Of a stretch of 64,000 nucleotides of DNA, positions 15,959 to 57,791 are shown in pieces. A model generated the notes under the pieces. That model made no database searches, had not been told where the DNA came from, and saw nothing but the letters and a program-made list of their open reading frames with translations. The translations under genes and the position numbers were made by a program. This DNA comes from a virus. Every line of letters begins with the position of its first letter. Position 1 is the stretch's first letter. The stretch lies in the UHGV virus genome UHGV-1430452; one strand, given 5' to 3'.

Positions 15959-16030
15959 GAAACAGTGTAGGACTCGAACCCACAACCTACAGATATAAGT
16001 CTGTTGCTCTACCAATTGAGCTAACTGTTT
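15959..16030 (-). tRNA. tRNA with non-canonical 6-nt anticodon loop (anticodon unresolved; UAU or UUA are the options)
   Basis: Minus-strand fold: 7-bp acceptor AAACAGT/ACTGTTT, D-arm GCTC-AATTGGTA-GAGC, T-arm GTGGG-TTCGAGT-CCTAC; anticodon stem ACAGA/TCTGT encloses only CTTATA. Confidence 0.6.
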
Positions 16031-41549: not shown

Positions 41550-44500
41550 TTATATCCTCCTTTCTATCACGGCTGCTCTTACAATTTCTTTAACAGCTTC
41601 TGTAATATTGCTTCCATCATCATAAGTAAGACCGTTAATGTTATATGAAACACCACCAACATTACCTAAGTCTTTACGAAGTCTGTTTATTGCTGAAACA
41701 ACATCATCCATAGATCCATTTTGAATTCTTTCACCCATCATAGAATTTATGGTGTTTAGTCTTGACATTACTCCCAATGTAGGAGTTCCATTCAACATGC
41801 CGTTAATTGCACTAGCTCCAGATTTAATATCAGACAAATCAAGGACTGGTCTTATTGTCGGCTGAGTGTTGATATCTCCGTCAAGAAGACTCGAAATTCT
41901 CGACATTGCTGTTTGAGTACTGTTAACAGCGTTATCGGACATTCTAGAAATAGATTGTTTCACTAATCCTCCGAACATACCGATACCCTTAGCAAATCCA
42001 ATAGGAACATATGAACCTATTTTCATGAACACCCTTGAAGGTGAATGAATAGCAAGATTAGCCCTAGCTGCTGCCGATGCTGCCGCTGCCATTGAAGCTG
42101 CTGCATTTGCCGCCGACCAAATGTTCGCTTGAATACCTGCTACAAATCCGCTAGCTACATAAGATCCAGAACTATAAAAGCTTGAATAATATCCTCTAGT
42201 AGAAGATACTGCTGAAGACAATATCGACGTTGTTGTGTTCACAACACTTGAAGCTCTACTTCGCATACCGTTTACGAATTGTGTCATTAAAGCAACGCCA
42301 TTAGTTCCAAATACGGATCTTTTACTGCTAATAGCTTTAAGCATCGAGTTGATAATATTGGTAGCTGTTGATGTTACCAATGCTTGTTTTGATTTCAAAC
42401 CATTAGAGAAAGATGTAATTAAGTTCGATCCAATGTTCGACATCTTAGACGTTGAACCACTAAATGATTTAGTAATACTATTCATAGAAGTTTGACCCAA
42501 AGTAGATACAGCAGTTTTAAACGATGCTACGCCGCTTGTGTTAAGTCCGGCCAAACTACTAATAAAATTCTTAATCTTAGTAGCCGCTGTTATAGAGCTA
42601 GATATTGATCCGACATTTATACCTGCAACAGAATCAGAGTAACTTTTTAAAGTACTTCCGATAGTTCCTATCTTAAAGTTTGAAACTCCACTAGAATCCA
42701 AACTTGATAGTCCCTGAATAAAAGTCTTTAATCTATTTGCCGCAGTAACAGAAGATGTAACTTTACCAGAGTCCACATTTTCAACCGACTTAGAGTAGCT
42801 CTTCAAAGTAGTTCCAATAGATCCTATTTTGAAGTTACTAACACCACTACTATCCAATCCCGTAAGACTTGATACAAAATTTCTAAGTCTATTTGCTGAT
42901 GATATGGATGATGAGACTATACCCGGGTCCATATCTTTAACGGAGTTTCCGTAGTCCTGCATAGCCTTACCTATGGAATTAATCTTGAAGTTTTCAATAC
43001 CGCTTGTATCAAGACCCACCAGACTAGCTATTAAACTCTTAAGTCTTAAAGCTACTGAGACTGCTGTGTTTACTTTAGCGATATCGATATCGGCTACAGA
43101 TTCTCCGAACTTACCTATAGCCTGTCCAATATTAACCAAATGACCGTCTCCGGCTCCAACACCTGCAAAGCTACTAACACCACTTGCATCGAGATCGGCT
43201 AAAGCGGTAATCAGGTTTTTAATCCTATAAGCGGCTGTTATGGCGGTGTTTATACCATCAGAGTTTATGTTTGCAGCGTCTGTTGAGAATGTAGTCATGG
43301 CCGAGCTGAATTTTTCGACGTATTTTGAGAATTCCTCAAGATTCATCTTACCGTCAAACCAGCCTTCTTCTGGAAGGGCTTCTTGAAGAGCTATAATAGC
43401 GCTACCTGCATTCGTTACGGATGTTACGACTGCTTCCGATATACCGTCCTCTCCCATTCCGGTTTTAAGTTTGCCCATAGCTGTAGCAAATTGACCTATG
43501 TTTTCGCCAAAAGTTCCTAAGTCATCTTTTCCGGTAAACCAGTCGATTACTCCTCCCATATTCTCAAGAGAAGATTGTAATCCAGCAAGTTTAGTAGCCG
43601 CATTTATAATAGAAGTAATTGAATCATCATCTATTTTTGTATCTCCTAAATCGGCAAAAGCAGTTTTCATCGATCCCATAAAGCTAGCGACACTAGACCC
43701 AAAAGTCCCTAAGTCGTCCCTTCCAGTGAACCAGTCAACCACTCCTCCTATATTTTCAAGCGATGACTGCAAGCCTGATAATTTAGTAGCTGCGTCGATG
43801 ATTATGCCGATTGCTTCGGTATTTATTTTGACTCCGTCTAAGCTTGAAAATGCTTTTGTCATAGATCCTATAAATAGACCTATATTTACACCAAATGTGC
43901 CGAGGTCGTCTCTACCTTTAAACCAGCTTATTACTCCACCTATTGGTTCGAGTGCTGACTGCAATCCTGCTAATTTAGTTGATCCATCGATAATGGTAGT
44001 CAAAGCTTCAGAATTAAATTCAACACCATCAAGACTCTGAAAAGCAGTTTTCATAGAGAATATAAATTGAGCTACGTTTGTTCCAAAAGTTCCAAGATCA
44101 TCTCTACCTTTAAACCAACTTATTACTCCGCCTATAGGTTCCAATGACGATTGTAAATTAGCTAGAATAGTAGTAGCACTTATTATTGCGGTTAATCCTT
44201 CTGTGTTTAAAGTAATTCCTTCTAGATCAGAGAACGCAACTTTCATGGAAGATATGAATTCTCCTACACTTTCTCCAAATGTGCCGAGGTCGTCTCTACC
44301 TTTAAACCAGCTTATTACTCCGCCTATTGGTTCAAGGCTAGATTGAAGTTTACTCAGTTCAGCAGCTCCAGTAATGATCGATGTTAAAGCTTCCGTATTG
44401 AAGGATACTCCGTCAAGACCTAGAAAAGCATTCTTCATTGAGAATATAAATTGACCGACGTTAGTTCCGAAAGTCGCGAGGTCATCCCTGCCAGAGAACC

Positions 44501-47500
44501 AATCCATAACACCGCCTATAGGCTCCAATGACGATTGTAATTCGCTAAGTTTCGTTGCTACATTTATCACAGCGCCCATTGCCGCCTCGTCTATTGTGAT
44601 TCCAGCAGAAGCTTGCGATATCGCTTTCATAGCATTGAAGAACGCAACACCATCGGTCTCAAACTTCTCCATAGAAGTACCACCGAGAGTGAATATGTCA
44701 GCGATAGAAGTACCAACTGTTGTAAATCCTATCTCTGCCATAGCACTCATTAAATCGGACACGCCATCGAAAGATCCTGATTTAATACCACTAGCATTTT
44801 CGCTTGCTATAGCTAGTTTGTCCATGAAATCAGCAATATTTTGACCTATTTCCGGTAAACTTCCGGTAATACCTTCTCCGATTCCTCCTATGAATGCTCC
44901 GATTCCTTTGCCGATTGCGTTTCCTATTTTTCCTAATAATCCACCGCCAGCTTCAACAAGGGACGAAAAACCTGGAATTTTAGATAACCCACCGATTGCT
45001 GCCAGAAGTACTGCTATCTCAGCTATTACAGCACCAACGGCTAATACTCCGGTCATTGCTGGGCCGGCTAAAGCTCCAGCTCCGGCGAATACTTTCATCA
45101 ATATTCCGATTACTCCGAATGCACCTATGCCTTTTAGCATAGTATCCATATCTAAATTGCCTATCGAATCGACGATACCTTTGACAACTTGTCCGACAAA
45201 ATTCATTATTGCCGATATTAATTCTGGAGTATGCTCGGCAAGACTATTAATAACTCCGATTATAAAACCGAGAAGTGAATCGACAATCTGTGGTGCATAC
45301 TGTTCTAATGCGTCTAAAACGCCTAAGAGCAGTTTCAGAAAACTTTCAGCCAATTGAGGTGCATATTCTCCTATAACTTTTGCGATTTCGACGATACCTC
45401 GACCTATTACTTCAGCAATTTGTGGAATCAATCCTAAAATACCGGTGATTATAACTGTTATTGATGCGACAAGCGCTGTGGCACCAGCAGTTCCAGCAGT
45501 AGCAAGAGCTGTGAATCCAGCTGATAGAGCAAGTATACCAACGCCAATTCCAGCTATAGCTACAGCAAATATAGCCATCGCAGCGGATAAACCAAGTATT
45601 GCCGGAGTGAGTGGACTCAGAAGAGCTCCAGCTACTCCTATTACTACAAAGGCTCCAGCAAGAGTTACGAGACCTTTTACTATGCTCTCCCAACTCATAG
45701 ATCCTAATGATTTCAATACAGGTGTTAAAATTGCTAATCCAGCAGCTGCAACAACTAATGCGGCAGACCCCTTAAGAGATCCACTCATGGCTTTTAATCC
45801 AATAGATAGCTCGACCAAAGCTATTCCAAGTACAACGAGTCCTTTTCCTATACTCTCCCAGCTCATCGATCCTAATGATTTTAAGACTGGAGTTAATATA
45901 GCAAGTGCTGACGCCATCAAAAGCATTTGACCGCCGAACTTAGCGATAGATCCACTACCCTTGCTCATAATTTTAGAAGCTAACACCAGCATTGTAACAA
46001 TACCTAATATTCCAGCTCCACCTTTAGCTAATTCGTTCCAACTCATAGAACCCAAACTCTTACCAACAGCAGCCAAAATGCCAACCGCAGCTGACATGAT
46101 AAGCATCTGTCCAGCAAATTTGGTTATAGACTTACTTTCAGTATTCATGAGTTTGGCAGCACCAACTAATATAGCGACTATTCCTAATATTCCGGCCCCA
46201 CCTTTGGCTAATTCTTCCCAACTCATTGAACTGAGAATTTTAGCGACTCCAGATAACGCTGCTATTGCTGCTGATAATATAAGCATCTGTCCAGCAAATT
46301 TGGTTATAGACTTACTTTCGGTATTCATAAGTTTAGCAGCCGCGACGAGTATAGCTACCATTCCACCAATACCAACGAGGCCTTTTGCTACACCGTTCCA
46401 ATCAAGTCCAGCTATAATTTTCATAGCGCCTGCTAATATAAGAATAGCTGCTCCGAGTCCAATCATCTGAACAGTTCTAGCTATACCTGACAAACTTGAT
46501 ACTATACCAGATAAAGGTTTGACACTTTTGCTGTTTATTTTTTCAAGCACTGCTAATGCAGATATCAACTCTACAAACAAACCGCCTATTGCGCCTAAAG
46601 AACTTCCGAGTTTATCCTCGTCTATTCCAGATATGACAAAAAGAGCCGCTGCCAGTATTCCAATAGCACCCGCTATTTTTAGCAATGTTCCGGCTTTAAG
46701 ATTCTGTTGCCATGATTCCAAACTTCCCTTAACGCCATCAAGTATTTTTTTAACGTTATCTAAGAAACTTATTTTTTCGAATGGATCAGATAATCCTTTA
46801 ATAAAGTTTCTTATGGCTAGTAATATTCCAGCAAACAATCCGCTGTTTAATACTTCGAAAATATCGCCTTTACCAAAGGCATCGGCTATCATATTACCTA
46901 TATCGGAAAAAGCTTCTCCGATGGCCGCGCCAACCGACTTTATAGTGTTCCATAGACCGGAAAAGAAGCCAAGAAAACCTTGAAGTGTAGGAGAAATCTT
47001 AAAACTCTCAATAAGTGAGCGTCCAAACTCTGCTATTTTTGAAATCCCGTTGCTAAGAAATCCAACAATTTTATCAACTGCGTCGCCAAACAGATTTCCT
47101 TCTACTATGGAGTCTCTCACATTCGAGATAAAATCTCCAAAAGAACTCGTTGCATCCAGTATTCCTCCACCAAGTCCGGTGAAGTTTCCAATAATATCTA
47201 GAGCGCCTTTTCCAACAGCTTTAAAAGCCTCTATAACAATATCGATAGCGGAAAAGATTCCTTTAAATGTAGATTTTATTTTAGATGCAGCGCCTTCACT
47301 TACTTTTAAAGTATCAGTGAAAGCTTTGAATCTATCAATCATACTTACTACTTGGTCGACTGTAGTAGGTGGAAATATCTCTCTAAAAGCTTCTTTTATC
47401 GGTTTTATTATATCTCCAAGGAATTTGAATATATTTTTCAAACCCTCTATAATTTTTTCTCTACCGCCAAGCTCGGTTATTCCATCGATAAGACCATCTA

Positions 47501-49097
47501 TGTTGTCTTTTAATTTATTCGTAGATTCGTTTGCTTCATTTAGCGCTTTTAATGTAGCGTCATCAACGATACCTGTTATTTCTAAATCGTTAGCTTCCTG
47601 AAAAGCTTTAATAGCTGACTCTGTGGCACTTCCGAAAATTCCATCAGCACCAGAATCGCCAATATCATAGTTAAGGCTTTGTAATGCTTTTTGTACTTTT
47701 GTTACGTCGTCTCCTGTATTACCTTTCGATAAACCGGCTTCGACTCCACTTAAATCTACAAGTTCGCCTTTTAATCCGCTAACAGCTTCTTTTAAAATAT
47801 CAGAAGATATGGCACCAGATTGAAAAGCTTTTTCTAGAGAACCATATTTTTTTATGATCTCGTCCATATTAACGCCATGGTCCTCAGCAATCGATCTAAC
47901 TTTTTCCTCAAAAGTATCGGTTTCTACACCAGCTTCATTTATTTTTTTTACAAGCTTATCCCAGTTAGAAGACATCGCGCCTTCCAATAATTCGTTACGA
48001 GATTTCGCTGATGATTCAACCATCTTTCCAATGGTATCTGAAATTCCAGTGAACAATTCTTTGGAGTCTTCAAAATCACCGACAAGTATTCTCCAAGTTT
48101 GACCCCATCCAGATTGGAGAGATTCTTTTACCGTATCTATCAGCTGTGTGAATGTTTTTACTTTTGTAGCAGCGTCTTCAGCGTCCTTCGCTAAAGCCAT
48201 AATATCGTTTGCTTGAGATTCGCTATAACCTTGGGCAATAAGATCGGCCTTACTATATGCGCCAGACAATTGGTTAAGAGTTTCAGTTAATACCTCGGTC
48301 GTTAACCATTCACCTTTTGTTAGGCTTTCTCTAAAGCTGCCATATGTATCAATAGCTTGTTTAGCGCCTGTTCCCAAAAGTTCAGACGTTCTAACAAGTG
48401 CGTCCTGAAATACCTTACCACCCATACCGGCATTAACAACTGAGTTCCAGTCCATAAGACTAACTTTACCTGCCGCCAATGCCTGAGAAAGCTGATACAT
48501 CGCAGTAGATGCCTGTTGAGAAGTTGATCCAGAAACTGCGGCCAAGTTCGCAATACCTTTAATAGCATTAACTGAGGTATCAAGTTTTACACCAGCTGCT
48601 GTAAACGTACCGATATTACGAGTCATTTCCGTAAAATTGTAAATCGTCTTATCGGCATATGTATTTAGCTCATCTAAAGCCTTATTTACAATATCAACAT
48701 TAGTGCCTTCCTGCCTTGTATTGGATAGAATTGTCTGAATAGCACCAATCTGAGTTTCGTATTCTTGGAAACCGCTTTTAACCGGATCTATAGTTAATGC
48801 TGATATCATACGTTTACCAGTGTTAACAGCCTGGTTAGTGATGTTTGCTAAAGCAGTTACACCAGCGACCTGTAGTGCTGAAAATTTAGCCTGAACTGTC
48901 TCTATACCACTGCTCATTCCTGCAAAGCTAACACCTTTAGCAGCCTTACCGACATTCTCCAACCCTTTGGAGGCACCAGATAGATTTAACTTTTGTTTGA
49001 GCTTATCGAGAGTTGACATACTGGTTGCGACTCCGCTCTCAAACTGCTTATTGTCGAACCGCATCTCCAAGACTCTGTTGTCAATAGTCGTACTCAT
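41550..49097 (-). CDS. tape measure protein (2515 aa) with internal repeats and a peptidoglycan-binding domain
   Basis: N-terminal tape-measure domain (GFQEYETQIGAIQ...MYQLSQALAAGKVSLMDWNS); PG_binding_1-like segment DDVTKVQKALQSLNYDIGDSGADGIFGSATESAIKAFQ; repeated ISWFKGRDDLGTFG and TM-rich blocks. Confidence 0.85.
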   Translation of the reverse strand: MSTTIDNRVLEMRFDNKQFESGVATSMSTLDKLKQKLNLSGASKGLENVGKAAKGVSFAGMSSGIETVQAKFSALQVAGVTALANITNQAVNTGKRMISALTIDPVKSGFQEYETQIGAIQTILSNTRQEGTNVDIVNKALDELNTYADKTIYNFTEMTRNIGTFTAAGVKLDTSVNAIKGIANLAAVSGSTSQQASTAMYQLSQALAAGKVSLMDWNSVVNAGMGGKVFQDALVRTSELLGTGAKQAIDTYGSFRESLTKGEWLTTEVLTETLNQLSGAYSKADLIAQGYSESQANDIMALAKDAEDAATKVKTFTQLIDTVKESLQSGWGQTWRILVGDFEDSKELFTGISDTIGKMVESSAKSRNELLEGAMSSNWDKLVKKINEAGVETDTFEEKVRSIAEDHGVNMDEIIKKYGSLEKAFQSGAISSDILKEAVSGLKGELVDLSGVEAGLSKGNTGDDVTKVQKALQSLNYDIGDSGADGIFGSATESAIKAFQEANDLEITGIVDDATLKALNEANESTNKLKDNIDGLIDGITELGGREKIIEGLKNIFKFLGDIIKPIKEAFREIFPPTTVDQVVSMIDRFKAFTDTLKVSEGAASKIKSTFKGIFSAIDIVIEAFKAVGKGALDIIGNFTGLGGGILDATSSFGDFISNVRDSIVEGNLFGDAVDKIVGFLSNGISKIAEFGRSLIESFKISPTLQGFLGFFSGLWNTIKSVGAAIGEAFSDIGNMIADAFGKGDIFEVLNSGLFAGILLAIRNFIKGLSDPFEKISFLDNVKKILDGVKGSLESWQQNLKAGTLLKIAGAIGILAAALFVISGIDEDKLGSSLGAIGGLFVELISALAVLEKINSKSVKPLSGIVSSLSGIARTVQMIGLGAAILILAGAMKIIAGLDWNGVAKGLVGIGGMVAILVAAAKLMNTESKSITKFAGQMLILSAAIAALSGVAKILSSMSWEELAKGGAGILGIVAILVGAAKLMNTESKSITKFAGQMLIMSAAVGILAAVGKSLGSMSWNELAKGGAGILGIVTMLVLASKIMSKGSGSIAKFGGQMLLMASALAILTPVLKSLGSMSWESIGKGLVVLGIALVELSIGLKAMSGSLKGSAALVVAAAGLAILTPVLKSLGSMSWESIVKGLVTLAGAFVVIGVAGALLSPLTPAILGLSAAMAIFAVAIAGIGVGILALSAGFTALATAGTAGATALVASITVIITGILGLIPQIAEVIGRGIVEIAKVIGEYAPQLAESFLKLLLGVLDALEQYAPQIVDSLLGFIIGVINSLAEHTPELISAIMNFVGQVVKGIVDSIGNLDMDTMLKGIGAFGVIGILMKVFAGAGALAGPAMTGVLAVGAVIAEIAVLLAAIGGLSKIPGFSSLVEAGGGLLGKIGNAIGKGIGAFIGGIGEGITGSLPEIGQNIADFMDKLAIASENASGIKSGSFDGVSDLMSAMAEIGFTTVGTSIADIFTLGGTSMEKFETDGVAFFNAMKAISQASAGITIDEAAMGAVINVATKLSELQSSLEPIGGVMDWFSGRDDLATFGTNVGQFIFSMKNAFLGLDGVSFNTEALTSIITGAAELSKLQSSLEPIGGVISWFKGRDDLGTFGESVGEFISSMKVAFSDLEGITLNTEGLTAIISATTILANLQSSLEPIGGVISWFKGRDDLGTFGTNVAQFIFSMKTAFQSLDGVEFNSEALTTIIDGSTKLAGLQSALEPIGGVISWFKGRDDLGTFGVNIGLFIGSMTKAFSSLDGVKINTEAIGIIIDAATKLSGLQSSLENIGGVVDWFTGRDDLGTFGSSVASFMGSMKTAFADLGDTKIDDDSITSIINAATKLAGLQSSLENMGGVIDWFTGKDDLGTFGENIGQFATAMGKLKTGMGEDGISEAVVTSVTNAGSAIIALQEALPEEGWFDGKMNLEEFSKYVEKFSSAMTTFSTDAANINSDGINTAITAAYRIKNLITALADLDASGVSSFAGVGAGDGHLVNIGQAIGKFGESVADIDIAKVNTAVSVALRLKSLIASLVGLDTSGIENFKINSIGKAMQDYGNSVKDMDPGIVSSSISSANRLRNFVSSLTGLDSSGVSNFKIGSIGTTLKSYSKSVENVDSGKVTSSVTAANRLKTFIQGLSSLDSSGVSNFKIGTIGSTLKSYSDSVAGINVGSISSSITAATKIKNFISSLAGLNTSGVASFKTAVSTLGQTSMNSITKSFSGSTSKMSNIGSNLITSFSNGLKSKQALVTSTATNIINSMLKAISSKRSVFGTNGVALMTQFVNGMRSRASSVVNTTTSILSSAVSSTRGYYSSFYSSGSYVASGFVAGIQANIWSAANAAASMAAAASAAARANLAIHSPSRVFMKIGSYVPIGFAKGIGMFGGLVKQSISRMSDNAVNSTQTAMSRISSLLDGDINTQPTIRPVLDLSDIKSGASAINGMLNGTPTLGVMSRLNTINSMMGERIQNGSMDDVVSAINRLRKDLGNVGGVSYNINGLTYDDGSNITEAVKEIVRAAVIERRI
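43300..46400. repeat. in-frame tandem repeats inside the tape measure gene
   Basis: Recurrent protein blocks (PIGGVISWFKGRDDLGTFG x5-6; GILGIVAILVGAAKLMNTESKSITKFAGQMLI x2-3) and matching DNA periodicity; boundaries approximate. Confidence 0.5.
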
Positions 49098-53621: not shown

Positions 53622-55559
53622 TTAGGCAGTTTCTTTCACGAATTCAAGAGCTACTGCGGAATACGGTTTAACAAGTGTACCGGAGCAACGTGTCTCCATA
53701 AGATACTTCTGCTTGTTGTAATCGATATCGAAATCATCGAAGAAGTTGATTTCTCCACCCTTATCTGTACCTACGTTGTAATCTTTAAGATTTACATAGA
53801 TACCAGCAAGCTCATATGTCTTATTTTCATCGTCTGTTCTTGTAAGACCTTCCATTACCGGAACCGGAACGATTTCTCTTACGCGAAGAGATGCTGCAAG
53901 TTTCTGTACGCTATCATAGATAACACGTCCGTTTGTATCTTCAATGAGCAAGCAATCTGTAAGCATATCCTCAGACATGAACATATCAGGGTTGCCAGAT
54001 CCTTTATAATTCTTTCTGGATTTGATGCAAGCTTTGATGAATGCCTTAGCTTTCTCTTCAGCAGTAGCGGAATCGCTTACATTGATAGCTGCTTTAACTG
54101 TGAAAAGATCTTCCATCTTCCAGATAGGTCTGATGCAGTCCTCATTGATTTTATCGTTAGCCTCTTCAACCGGATCTCTTCCATCACCGATAAGGAATGC
54201 GCGAGCAAGTTCCTCATCAAGCATCATACGAACTTCTCTCTTCAGCCATGGAAGAATATCGAAATCTGTAATATCAAGCATGTCATCGCGATCTAATGCC
54301 TGTTTCTTGTATACAGTTGTTGGATTTGTTACACGTTTGAGAAGCTTAAATACTTCTTCAATTTTAAGTTTGCCTTTCTGGTATCCCTTTGCTCTAGCCT
54401 GTGCTGCTGTGATGTCAGCAAAGATAGTTTTGATACGGGAGAACGGTGTGTGATGTACTCCGCCAAGTACTTTTGATACCCAATCGTCATTACGTTTGAT
54501 AAATTCCGGTTCATTGTTAAGATTCTTTGCATCCGGGAATAAGATGTCAATGTCTGTGATACCATGAGCAAGCACTGCCTCTTTAAGAGAACCTGAGCGT
54601 TTCGCATCTTCGAAAATCGCAGTCATCTCGGAGTGTGTAAGCACATCATCTGCCATAGGGGTTTCATTGTCGAATACGTTGTGTTTCATATTTTTGTTTC
54701 CTCCTTCATTTTCATCATCTTCTTCGGTTTCAACACCAGCATCTTCTAATGCCTGTCCGATCATAGCGTACACAACAGTTTTCTGTTTCTCAGAAAGAGT
54801 GTTGAATACATCAGCTACAGTTTCTTCTTTGTTTTCTCCCTTTGTTTCTTCCTCGGCATGTTTTACTTCTTCCTCAGAATGGGTTACTTCTTCTTTGTCT
54901 GGTTTATCATCGTTTTCTTCTTTGATACCAGCATCTTCTAATGCCTGTCCGATCATAGCGTACACAACAGTTTTCTGTTTTTCAGAAAGAGTGTTGAATA
55001 CATCAGCTACAGTTTCGTCCTTATTTTCTTCGGCATTATGTTTTTTGGTTTCTTCTGCCATTTTTTCTTCTCCTTTCTCAGAAGTATCTGCGTGGAACAA
55101 TGACTCCACATTTTCGATATATTCGCCTGAGCTGATATATCCCTCTTCATAAGAATCTTCGCCATGCATCATGACAGACTCTATTACTGCGCCTGGATTA
55201 GCACCAGCTAAAACCAAACTAAGCTCACGAATGACTCCGTGAACTACATTACTTCCCTGCTGTTTAAGTCTGTTGGCATATATGGAAAATCTATTCACAT
55301 CACCATGCTGAACCAGCAATTTAGCATTCTGCCCTGATTCCGTATCGTTAAATGTGCAATATGCATACACACCTTCGTCCCTGTTTTCCAGCAAGGCATG
55401 ACCGAGCACTTCATCTACGCTATTATGCTGATGATTCCAAACTAACGGTACAGTTTCACCATCGCACTCTTTGAATGCATCTTTCATGATGACTCTACCG
55501 TCCGCACACAGCATGTCAGCTTTAGTAGCCCAGCCAGAACAATCATATGACTTAGCCAT
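53622..55559 (-). CDS. prohead protease - scaffold-like linker - major capsid protein fusion
   Basis: N-terminal prohead-protease-like region (VPLVWNHQ...FSIYA...ELSLVLAGANPGAVI); acidic linker with duplicated ETVADVFNTLSEKQKTVVYAMIGQALEDAG; ~350-aa C-terminal capsid-like domain. Confidence 0.6.
   Translation of the reverse strand: MAKSYDCSGWATKADMLCADGRVIMKDAFKECDGETVPLVWNHQHNSVDEVLGHALLENRDEGVYAYCTFNDTESGQNAKLLVQHGDVNRFSIYANRLKQQGSNVVHGVIRELSLVLAGANPGAVIESVMMHGEDSYEEGYISSGEYIENVESLFHADTSEKGEEKMAEETKKHNAEENKDETVADVFNTLSEKQKTVVYAMIGQALEDAGIKEENDDKPDKEEVTHSEEEVKHAEEETKGENKEETVADVFNTLSEKQKTVVYAMIGQALEDAGVETEEDDENEGGNKNMKHNVFDNETPMADDVLTHSEMTAIFEDAKRSGSLKEAVLAHGITDIDILFPDAKNLNNEPEFIKRNDDWVSKVLGGVHHTPFSRIKTIFADITAAQARAKGYQKGKLKIEEVFKLLKRVTNPTTVYKKQALDRDDMLDITDFDILPWLKREVRMMLDEELARAFLIGDGRDPVEEANDKINEDCIRPIWKMEDLFTVKAAINVSDSATAEEKAKAFIKACIKSRKNYKGSGNPDMFMSEDMLTDCLLIEDTNGRVIYDSVQKLAASLRVREIVPVPVMEGLTRTDDENKTYELAGIYVNLKDYNVGTDKGGEINFFDDFDIDYNKQKYLMETRCSGTLVKPYSAVALEFVKETA
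54736..55018. repeat. ~90-bp duplicated module inside the capsid fusion gene
   Basis: Near-identical DNA at 54736-54825 and 54929-55018. Confidence 0.7.
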
Positions 55560-57194: not shown

Positions 57195-57791
57195 CTATGG
57201 TGTTGATGGATTAAGACTTTCAGCGATTTTAGCGTCTATGTATGAATGTATTTCAGCTATATCCGCTTCCGTCCAATAATCAGTACCTCTGACAGGTGTC
57301 TTCCCATCAGTACCAGGATCTCCTTTTGGTCCAGCATCACCAGTATCACCTTTTGGTCCCTGAACACCCTGTTCACCTTGAGGTCCGGTTAATCCTGTAT
57401 CTCCCTTTGGACCCTGAATACCTTGTTCACCTTGAGGTCCAGTAGCTCCGGTATCACCTTTTGGTCCCTGGATACCCTGTTCACCTTTCGGGCCTGTAGC
57501 TCCGGTATCACCTTTCGGACCTTTAAGACTAGCTAACCATTCAGTCTCGCTTCCTTCGAAACCAGTAGAAAGCGCTACTTGATAAGCAGAATCACCTGGA
57601 TCTCCTTTTTCACCAGGAGGGCCAGGAGTGGTTGAACCAGTTCCTCCGTTAGTAATGAGCTCGCATAATTCCCAAAGCAATTCTTCAGCTCTAGACTGAG
57701 GTCTCGGCAATCCTTCAGTACCTTTCTGTAAGATAGTATTTTTCATATATTCTTCAAATCTACTATCCGGTATGTATGTTTCATCGATCAT
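57195..57791 (-). CDS. collagen-like repeat protein
   Basis: 198 aa; GPKGDTGATGPKGEQGIQGPKGDTGATGPQGEQGIQGPKGDTGLTGPQGEQGVQGPKGDTGDAGPKGDPG. Confidence 0.55.
   Translation of the reverse strand: MIDETYIPDSRFEEYMKNTILQKGTEGLPRPQSRAEELLWELCELITNGGTGSTTPGPPGEKGDPGDSAYQVALSTGFEGSETEWLASLKGPKGDTGATGPKGEQGIQGPKGDTGATGPQGEQGIQGPKGDTGLTGPQGEQGVQGPKGDTGDAGPKGDPGTDGKTPVRGTDYWTEADIAEIHSYIDAKIAESLNPSTP

Follow-up and report, generated by a model that had tools for sequence, protein, structure and literature searches.

The 64,000-nucleotide stretch of viral DNA analysed here (UHGV virus genome UHGV-1430452), referred to throughout as the window, carries a long minus-strand open reading frame (ORF) at 53622..55559 (-), the presence of which we confirmed. 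This ORF begins with ATG, comprises 645 codons plus a stop, and joins a prohead protease, a linker and a capsid protein into a single predicted product of 72.4 kDa (P1). The prohead serine protease domain spans amino acids (aa) 1-134 (55158..55559, minus strand); Peptidase_S78 (PF04586) matches at aa 17-94 with 27.7 bits against a Pfam cut-off of 21, and alignments show H43, S92, H107 and E112 to be invariant among relatives down to 39% identity, H43 and S92 being the putative catalytic His and Ser. The equivalog model TIGR01543 (proheadase_HK97, NCBIfam) stays below its cut-off (27.9-32.2 bits vs 59), and by its sequence this part is a divergent S78 domain and no equivalog of HK97 gp4. The linker that follows, aa 135-290, is acidic, with 30% aspartate plus glutamate and an isoelectric point (pI) of 4.2. 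The HK97-fold major capsid protein part, aa 291-645 (53625..54689, minus strand), matches Phage_capsid (PF05065) at aa 422-639 with 24.2 bits, which equals the Pfam cut-off, and TIGR01554 (major_cap_HK97, NCBIfam) with 34.8 bits against a cut-off of 27.5. In an AlphaFold2 (AF2) model of the whole protein built from a 51-sequence alignment, with a mean predicted local distance difference test score (pLDDT) of 58, the N-terminal domain is beta-rich and the linker disordered, and a Foldseek search matches the capsid part to the capsids of gene transfer agents (GTA), T5, HK97 and T7 with E values down to 8e-7 (8e-7 to 1e-4 for HK97, T5 and GTA). Searches of the PDB with the protein sequence and the 51-sequence profile found no relative. 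An earlier note, made from the DNA letters, had described a protease-like N-terminus, an acidic linker and a capsid-like C-terminus within one 645-aa ORF, and this description holds: both the S78 protease and the HK97 capsid domain are found above or at the respective cut-offs, the linker pI is 4.2 and the capsid part has the HK97 fold.

The linker contains a 30-aa module, ETVADVFNTLSEKQKTVVYAMIGQALEDAG, twice, at aa 182-211 (copy 1; 54927..55016, minus strand) and aa 246-275 (copy 2; 54735..54824, minus strand). The underlying DNA repeat has arms of 127 nt (54711-54837 and 54903-55029) that are 90% identical with a period of 192 nt, and its 90-nt cores (54735-54824 and 54927-55016) are identical but for one synonymous change (GAA vs GAG), a similarity far beyond chance. 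Between the modules lies a spacer with a 21-nt tandem repeat in 2.3 copies (54846..54893, minus strand), encoding EEV[T/K]H[S/A]E, which forms a smaller second repeat nested in the 192-nt period. AF2 models each module as a short helix followed by a 17-residue helix (pLDDT ~66-76) amid the disordered linker. Both the near-identical duplication of about 90 bp and the helical nature of the repeated element, as the earlier note had them, are thus borne out.

The window gene is almost certainly a member of a known family, and its fusion architecture has already been annotated and published. It matches phrog_3270 over its full length (E 5.1e-224, 746 bits), and a tblastn search against phage records matched 244 of them; 243 of the 244 cover at least 80% of the query in the same single frame and are annotated as capsid-protease fusions. 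Homology to family members runs over the full length at 35-63% identity, with the same domain order and the same helix modules, and a megablast search against phage genomes gave no match. When 1.84 billion representatives were scanned with the capsid part, 565 clusters (at 50% identity) were recovered with E values up to 1e-30, nearly all of them 560-790 aa long with the capsid part starting from residues 220-380. The single open frame from protease to capsid is kept in 84/84 related DNA loci and in 120/120 of the closest metagenome homologues, and together with the 243/244 phage records this excludes a sequencing error as the origin of the fusion. Klyczek et al. 2017 singled out the fusion as something unusual in Arthrobacter clusters AM and AU, and also mentioned the lambda scaffold-protease fusion (PMC5513430); in the Giantsbane preprint, capsid, protease and scaffold are described as one protein. 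The finding as first stated is therefore real and mostly ordinary, namely a known fusion with an old repeat. Our analysis suggests three new features: an array of modules that varies in copy number, a conserved pair of internal start sites and a candidate cleavage motif. Within the literature searchable, no mention of internal starts, the module array or the histidine motif was found in papers on the family.

Putative internal start sites and a split relative

Two methionine codons inside the frame, M291 (site 3) and M167 (site 2), are each preceded by a Shine-Dalgarno (SD) sequence. Site 3 lies at the junction of linker and capsid part, where the window reads GAAGGAGGaaacaaaaatATG directly before the capsid part; its ATG is at 54687..54689 and its SD, GAAGGAGG, at 54700..54707 (both minus strand), with a pairing energy of -11.7 kcal/mol and a spacing of 9 nt. 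We followed the homologous codon through a diverse set of 85 sequences (the window gene plus 84 related loci) sharing 35-66% identity, and found it to be ATG in 70, GTG in 12, and TTG, ATT and GCT in one each. A start-type codon is thereby present in 83/85, and the remaining two sequences have ATG or GTG within 3 codons. The choice among synonymous codons is equally restricted: all 12 valine codons at site 3 are GTG, which makes up 15.5% of the valine codons elsewhere in these genes, and the one leucine codon is TTG, which accounts for 9.4% of leucine codons elsewhere. Pairing with the anti-SD at or below -8.4 kcal/mol occurs at 86% of site-3 positions, against backgrounds of 2.5% for codon positions overall and 3.5% for those in the purine-rich linker, and the median site-3 SD (-10.2 kcal/mol, spacing 7-10 nt) is about as strong as that of the annotated start (-10.3). 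The residues encoded by this SD vary (EGG, EEE, KGG, DGG, EGD), and the combination of an SD with a start-type codon was encountered elsewhere in these genes only 17 times in 44,015 codons. In truncated contigs, the gene caller picks the site-3 ATG. From this conservation of codon and SD we predict that M291 is probably a used start, which would yield the capsid part alone as a product of 40.3 kDa (P3).

Site 2 lies 15 residues before module 1, with an SD-like AAAGGAG at 55070..55076 (-8.7 kcal/mol) and the ATG of M167 at 55059..55061 (both minus strand); its predicted product, P2, would consist of the modules and the capsid part (54.1 kDa). An SD with a start codon within 30 codons before the first module is found in 43/85 sequences, compared with 1.3% of control windows.

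A natural split relative, L091:2912-5065 (Logan SRR21150989), carries protease and capsid parts in separate genes. Its protease-linker gene encodes 357 aa with five modules and ends at an in-frame TAA, after which a 15-nt spacer with the SD AAGGAGA leads to AAGGAGAaattcaaaATG at exactly the site-3 Met, the sole start of a separate capsid gene of 354 aa. Within the protease-scaffold gene, the only internal combination of SD and ATG stands just before module 1. Judged by its gene layout, this relative uses the homologues of sites 2 and 3 as real gene starts. It is the only locus that we treated as a solid split, on the grounds of its in-frame TAA, its 31-kb contig and its occurrence in two samples. 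A second locus, L089, is split by one base in a run of A, which could be an assembly error. Three further candidates were rejected: L096 and L097 as stand-alone capsid genes, because their contigs break off 42 nt upstream while the frame is still open, and L088 as a split gene, which looks chimeric with HrcA-like sequence upstream.

A different rearrangement is seen at L092:4001-6388 (GCA_016852305.1, JAEIGA010015090.1), where a 795-aa paralogue lies beside a normal protease-capsid fusion of 563 aa. The paralogue, which lacks the protease, begins just before its single helix module; its other domains are an HK97 capsid domain and, at the C-terminus, a GDSL/SGNH lipase domain, and the predicted enzyme may be displayed on the capsid or packed in it. 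Modules are borne by the protease gene alone in L091 and L089, and by a protease-less capsid paralogue in L092.

Candidate cleavage motifs and predicted nested products

The linker and the start of the capsid part share a recurring histidine motif, [LIMV]-x-H-[SAG]-[DE]. Among 521 histidines found from the protease end up to the fiftieth residue after site 3, position -2 is L, I, M or V in 90%, position +1 is S, A or G in 70% and position +2 is D or E in 55%. In the window, all copies being on the minus strand, the first is MMHGED (55155..55172), containing the invariant H132, and the second is LFHADT (55083..55100) at the end of the protease part; both are putative processing sites. VTHSEE (54870-54887) and VKHAEE (54849-54866) lie in the inter-module spacer. 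Two more copies fall in the capsid part: LTHSEM (54624..54641), a putative processing site 17 residues after M291 that contains the invariant H309, and LAHGIT (54555..54572), containing the invariant H332, where cleavage would leave a mature capsid protein of 313 aa and 35.6 kDa. In the split relative L091, modules 1-4 of the five are each trailed by L-x-H-[A/E]-D.

Taken together, these features lead us to favour, with some reservation, an explanation based on sequence patterns, in which the fusion, its module units, three nested products, cleavage at the motifs and homogenised repeat copies belong to one system. One gene would give rise to three co-terminal products, namely protease-scaffold-capsid, scaffold-capsid and capsid alone. 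Through the full-length form, protease and scaffold would enter the procapsid as components of its shell. The modules would be scaffold-like, capsid-binding units, whose array of one to five copies could be carried by either the protease or the capsid protein, or by the two together; a putative role as scaffold or tethering units seems to us somewhat the better bet. After assembly, the protease would cut at the [L/I/M/V]-x-H-[S/A/G]-[D/E] motifs, which are placed on either side of the protease end, behind the modules and, within the capsid part, 17 and 40 residues from its start; the mature capsid protein set free in this way would measure ~36-38 kDa. The fullest form of this proposal has three initiation sites setting the proportions of the products of a nested gene, protease and scaffold built into the procapsid and then cut away at the repeated L-x-H-[S/A/G] motif, and an array of one to five modules that is renewed through recombination and may scale with capsid size; we give it even chances.

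Several observations weigh against this explanation. The five actinophage isolates have a weaker SD at site 3 (AGGAAGG, -5.7 to -6.5 kcal/mol), and about half of the relatives have a weak site 2 or none. The Met of site 3 doubles as the -2 hydrophobic residue of an M-K-H-N motif resembling the histidine motif, so its conservation could in part operate at the protein level, and the purine-rich linker raises the odds of SD-like strings, albeit to an in-linker background of only 3.5%. The searchable literature yielded no expression, proteomic or N-terminal data for family members. The AF2 model, at its overall pLDDT of 58, shows no contact between modules and capsid. A Foldseek search with a model of the protease part (pLDDT 54) gave no significant match, the top hits being herpesvirus assemblins at E 0.26-0.56, and the protease assignment therefore rests on sequence. 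The view of the histidine motifs as putative cleavage sites of the fused protease is one that we infer purely from their pattern and hold as tentative, and a parallel between the motif and the 80alpha cleavage sites proved wrong, 80alpha cleavage being carried out by the host protease Prp.

The strongest competing explanation is that the gene encodes a plain polyprotein, with initiation at codon 1 only and each subunit carrying its own protease and linker, which are removed after assembly. The SD and start signals would then be relics of three ancestral genes, pause sites between domains, or by-products of protein constraints such as a Gly-rich hinge and the hydrophobic residue of an M-K-H-N-V-F motif. 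This is consistent with the continuous open frame in 84/84 relatives, with the treatment of the gene as a simple fusion in the literature (PMC5513430; Giantsbane preprint), and with the purine-rich linker, the position of M291 at -2 of a string resembling the histidine motif and the weak SDs of actinophages. However, relics would be expected to decay among relatives that share 35-66% identity and whose linker around these signals cannot otherwise be aligned, and the SD persists while the residues it encodes vary. Nor does protein constraint explain why 12/12 valine codons are GTG and the leucine codon TTG, and whereas L or I predominates at -2 of other histidine motifs, site 3 has M there in 82%. 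In L091, moreover, a capsid part that starts at the site-3 Met stands as a functional unit. We thus consider the polyprotein unlikely, if well short of negligible, and retain nested initiation as the preferred reading.

Module copy number and capsid geometry

The helix-turn-helix module of 28-30 aa is, by sequence comparison, ancient and family-wide, with one to five copies. Among isolates, Lactococcus 1706, FP_oengus and SheRa have one copy, Gordonia Fazel two, Arthrobacter Zeina and Microbacterium Count three, and Arthrobacter Qui five, as does L091. The 85-sequence set comprises 62 sequences with one copy, 21 with two and 2 with three, and the 120 closest homologues have two copies in 108 and one in 12. 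In many of these two-copy homologues, the copies have clearly diverged, as in ETVKDVFETLTEKQKKAVYAIIGMALED vs ETVADVFDTLSEKQKTVVYAMIGQALEDAG. Since 108/120 of the closest relatives have two copies, often diverged, the two-copy array is ancestral in the clade of the window gene. The earlier note had taken the duplication as a sign of a recently expanded segment, and the comparison of repeat number across relatives does not uphold this.

The near-identity of the copies in the window probably arose instead by recent gene conversion or unequal recombination in an old two-copy array. Across 128 two-copy proteins, the identity of copies within a protein (0.81) exceeds that between proteins at the same position (0.71-0.77), and module cores are identical in 19 of them. 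Two close relatives differ from the window gene chiefly within the array. P0011 shares ~99% of its DNA sequence with the window gene outside a ~300-nt patch that starts at the site-2 ATG and ends midway through copy 2; in this patch, its copy 1 is of the diverged type. The P0002 gene agrees with the window gene at every base once one 192-nt period is set aside; it has one copy, either through real inter-repeat recombination or through repeat collapse in a low-coverage assembly; given possible collapse in its 4.4x SPAdes assembly, we dropped P0002 as proof of a recent deletion. The best reading of these data is ongoing homogenisation and turnover of copies by insertion and deletion, rather than recent invention.

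The earlier note had further proposed that the expanded segment may set assembly geometry. In its strong form, a recent scaffold or delta-domain expansion changes capsid geometry and module number sets the triangulation (T) number. Copy number does rise loosely with the length of the genome or contig (rho 0.49, 57 points; rho 0.64, p = 0.12 for seven isolates): below 70 kb, 25/34 have one copy, and at 78 kb or more, 20/23 have two or more. The isolates run from one copy at 43.6 kb through three at 55.0, one at 55.6, one at 58.4, two at 60.1 and three at 78.9 to five at 113.7 kb. Set against this, genomes of 55-60 kb have 1, 1, 2 or 3 copies, and the one-copy relatives P0035, P0040 and P0041 lie on contigs of 89-99 kb, as do two-copy ones. 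The two-copy state is old and the norm in the clade of the window gene, a gene identical in DNA save one 192-nt period exists (possibly through assembly collapse), and the length trend is phylogenetically confounded, its large-genome group coming from few independent lineages. A recent expansion that sets the T-number therefore appears improbable, and on the broader proposal that the segment may set assembly geometry the data speak neither way.

That the fusion or the duplication is an artefact of sequencing or assembly is hardly credible: near-perfect 90-nt repeats can mislead short-read assemblers, and the independent contigs L096 and L097 do break just upstream of site 3, but the fused frame occurs in hundreds of independent assemblies as well as isolate genomes, and the two modules found in 108/120 close relatives are in many cases diverged and hence no assembly duplicates.

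L096 and L097 are two independent assemblies (JGI and ENA) of a relative, and both stop at one and the same base 42 nt before the site-3 ATG. The probable cause is that the repeated modules upstream halt short-read assembly, which serves as a warning that module counts in metagenome contigs can be unreliable.

Genomic setting and relation to known head-assembly genes

The fusion gene lies in the order portal, small ORF, fusion gene, phrog_4270 protein, tail terminator, major tail protein and tail chaperone, and 1706, FP_oengus, Fazel and Zeina share this arrangement. Elsewhere in the window, neither a capsid or protease gene nor a module copy was found, and no separate scaffold gene lies nearby. 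The gene at 53622-55559 is probably the only head-assembly gene of its phage, which is of siphovirus type and probably infects a Gram-positive gut bacterium. In the relative L086, the tail-chaperone genes are closely followed by a gene (L086:7320+) with GH25, CHAP and CW_7 domains; at this position, L091 has a gene with TMP_3 and CW_7 domains. These domains point to a Gram-positive host. Downstream of the tail genes, the window has an ORF of 2515 aa at 41550-49097 (-), presumably the tape measure. Just upstream of the portal, at 57195-57791 (-), lies a gene whose 198-aa product contains long G-X-Y repeats of collagen type and matches many tail-fibre PHROGs through these repeats only; relatives carry Pfam Collagen and DUF7211 genes at this place. 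A tRNA at 15959-16030 (-) is confirmed by Rfam (62 bits), while ARAGORN names no anticodon; its fold has a 6-nt anticodon loop, CUUAUA, in place of 7 nt, with an Ile-UAU-like or a UUA suppressor-like tRNA as candidates.

Lambda C/Nu3, Mu I/Z and herpesvirus UL26/UL26.5 are nested protease-scaffold genes. Like them, the window gene has an in-frame internal ribosome-binding site and start within a protease gene, with a predicted co-terminal scaffold product, and L091 has the exact layout of lambda C/Nu3, with site 2 before its five modules. Unlike in lambda C/Nu3, the capsid protein of the window gene is in the same frame with its own putative retained start, such that the predicted nested products would share the shell subunit as their C-terminal part. 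The gene also resembles the HK97 gp5 delta domain plus gp4 in its S78-type protease, its HK97-fold capsid, a scaffold function N-terminal to the capsid and proteolytic removal (here predicted), whereas the protease is covalently joined in the window gene. Instead of the single helical domain of ~100 aa that forms the HK97 delta, its linker is disordered and acidic, with two helix-turn-helix modules of 28-30 aa in the AF2 model and one to five among relatives. A further analogy may be drawn with the coat-binding helix-turn-helix or 'helix-and-hook' of P22 gp8 and the 80alpha scaffolding protein (SP), as the module is short, has two helices and might dock on the N-arm of the capsid; the 80alpha SP helix-and-hook contacts the N-arm of the coat protein (PMC5744158). 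In contrast to P22 gp8 and 80alpha SP, the modules of the window are repeated and acidic to neutral, and the likeness is without a sequence or fold match. NCBIfam NF045541 ('prohead protease/major capsid protein fusion protein') embodies the same fusion idea in a different family, the protease part of the window gene scoring 17.1 bits vs a cut-off of 525.

Phages with fused protease and capsid are common, and include hundreds of actinophages in teaching collections, dairy Lactococcus phages and abundant gut phages. For these phages, the conserved internal starts would offer a simple answer to how a sensible ratio of protease to scaffold to capsid is obtained from one gene, and would tie the fusion family to the nested protease/scaffold genes classically known from lambda, Mu and herpesviruses. 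The annotation of the fusion gene should carry alternative start sites, and the array of one to five modules would provide a natural series on scaffold length versus capsid size.

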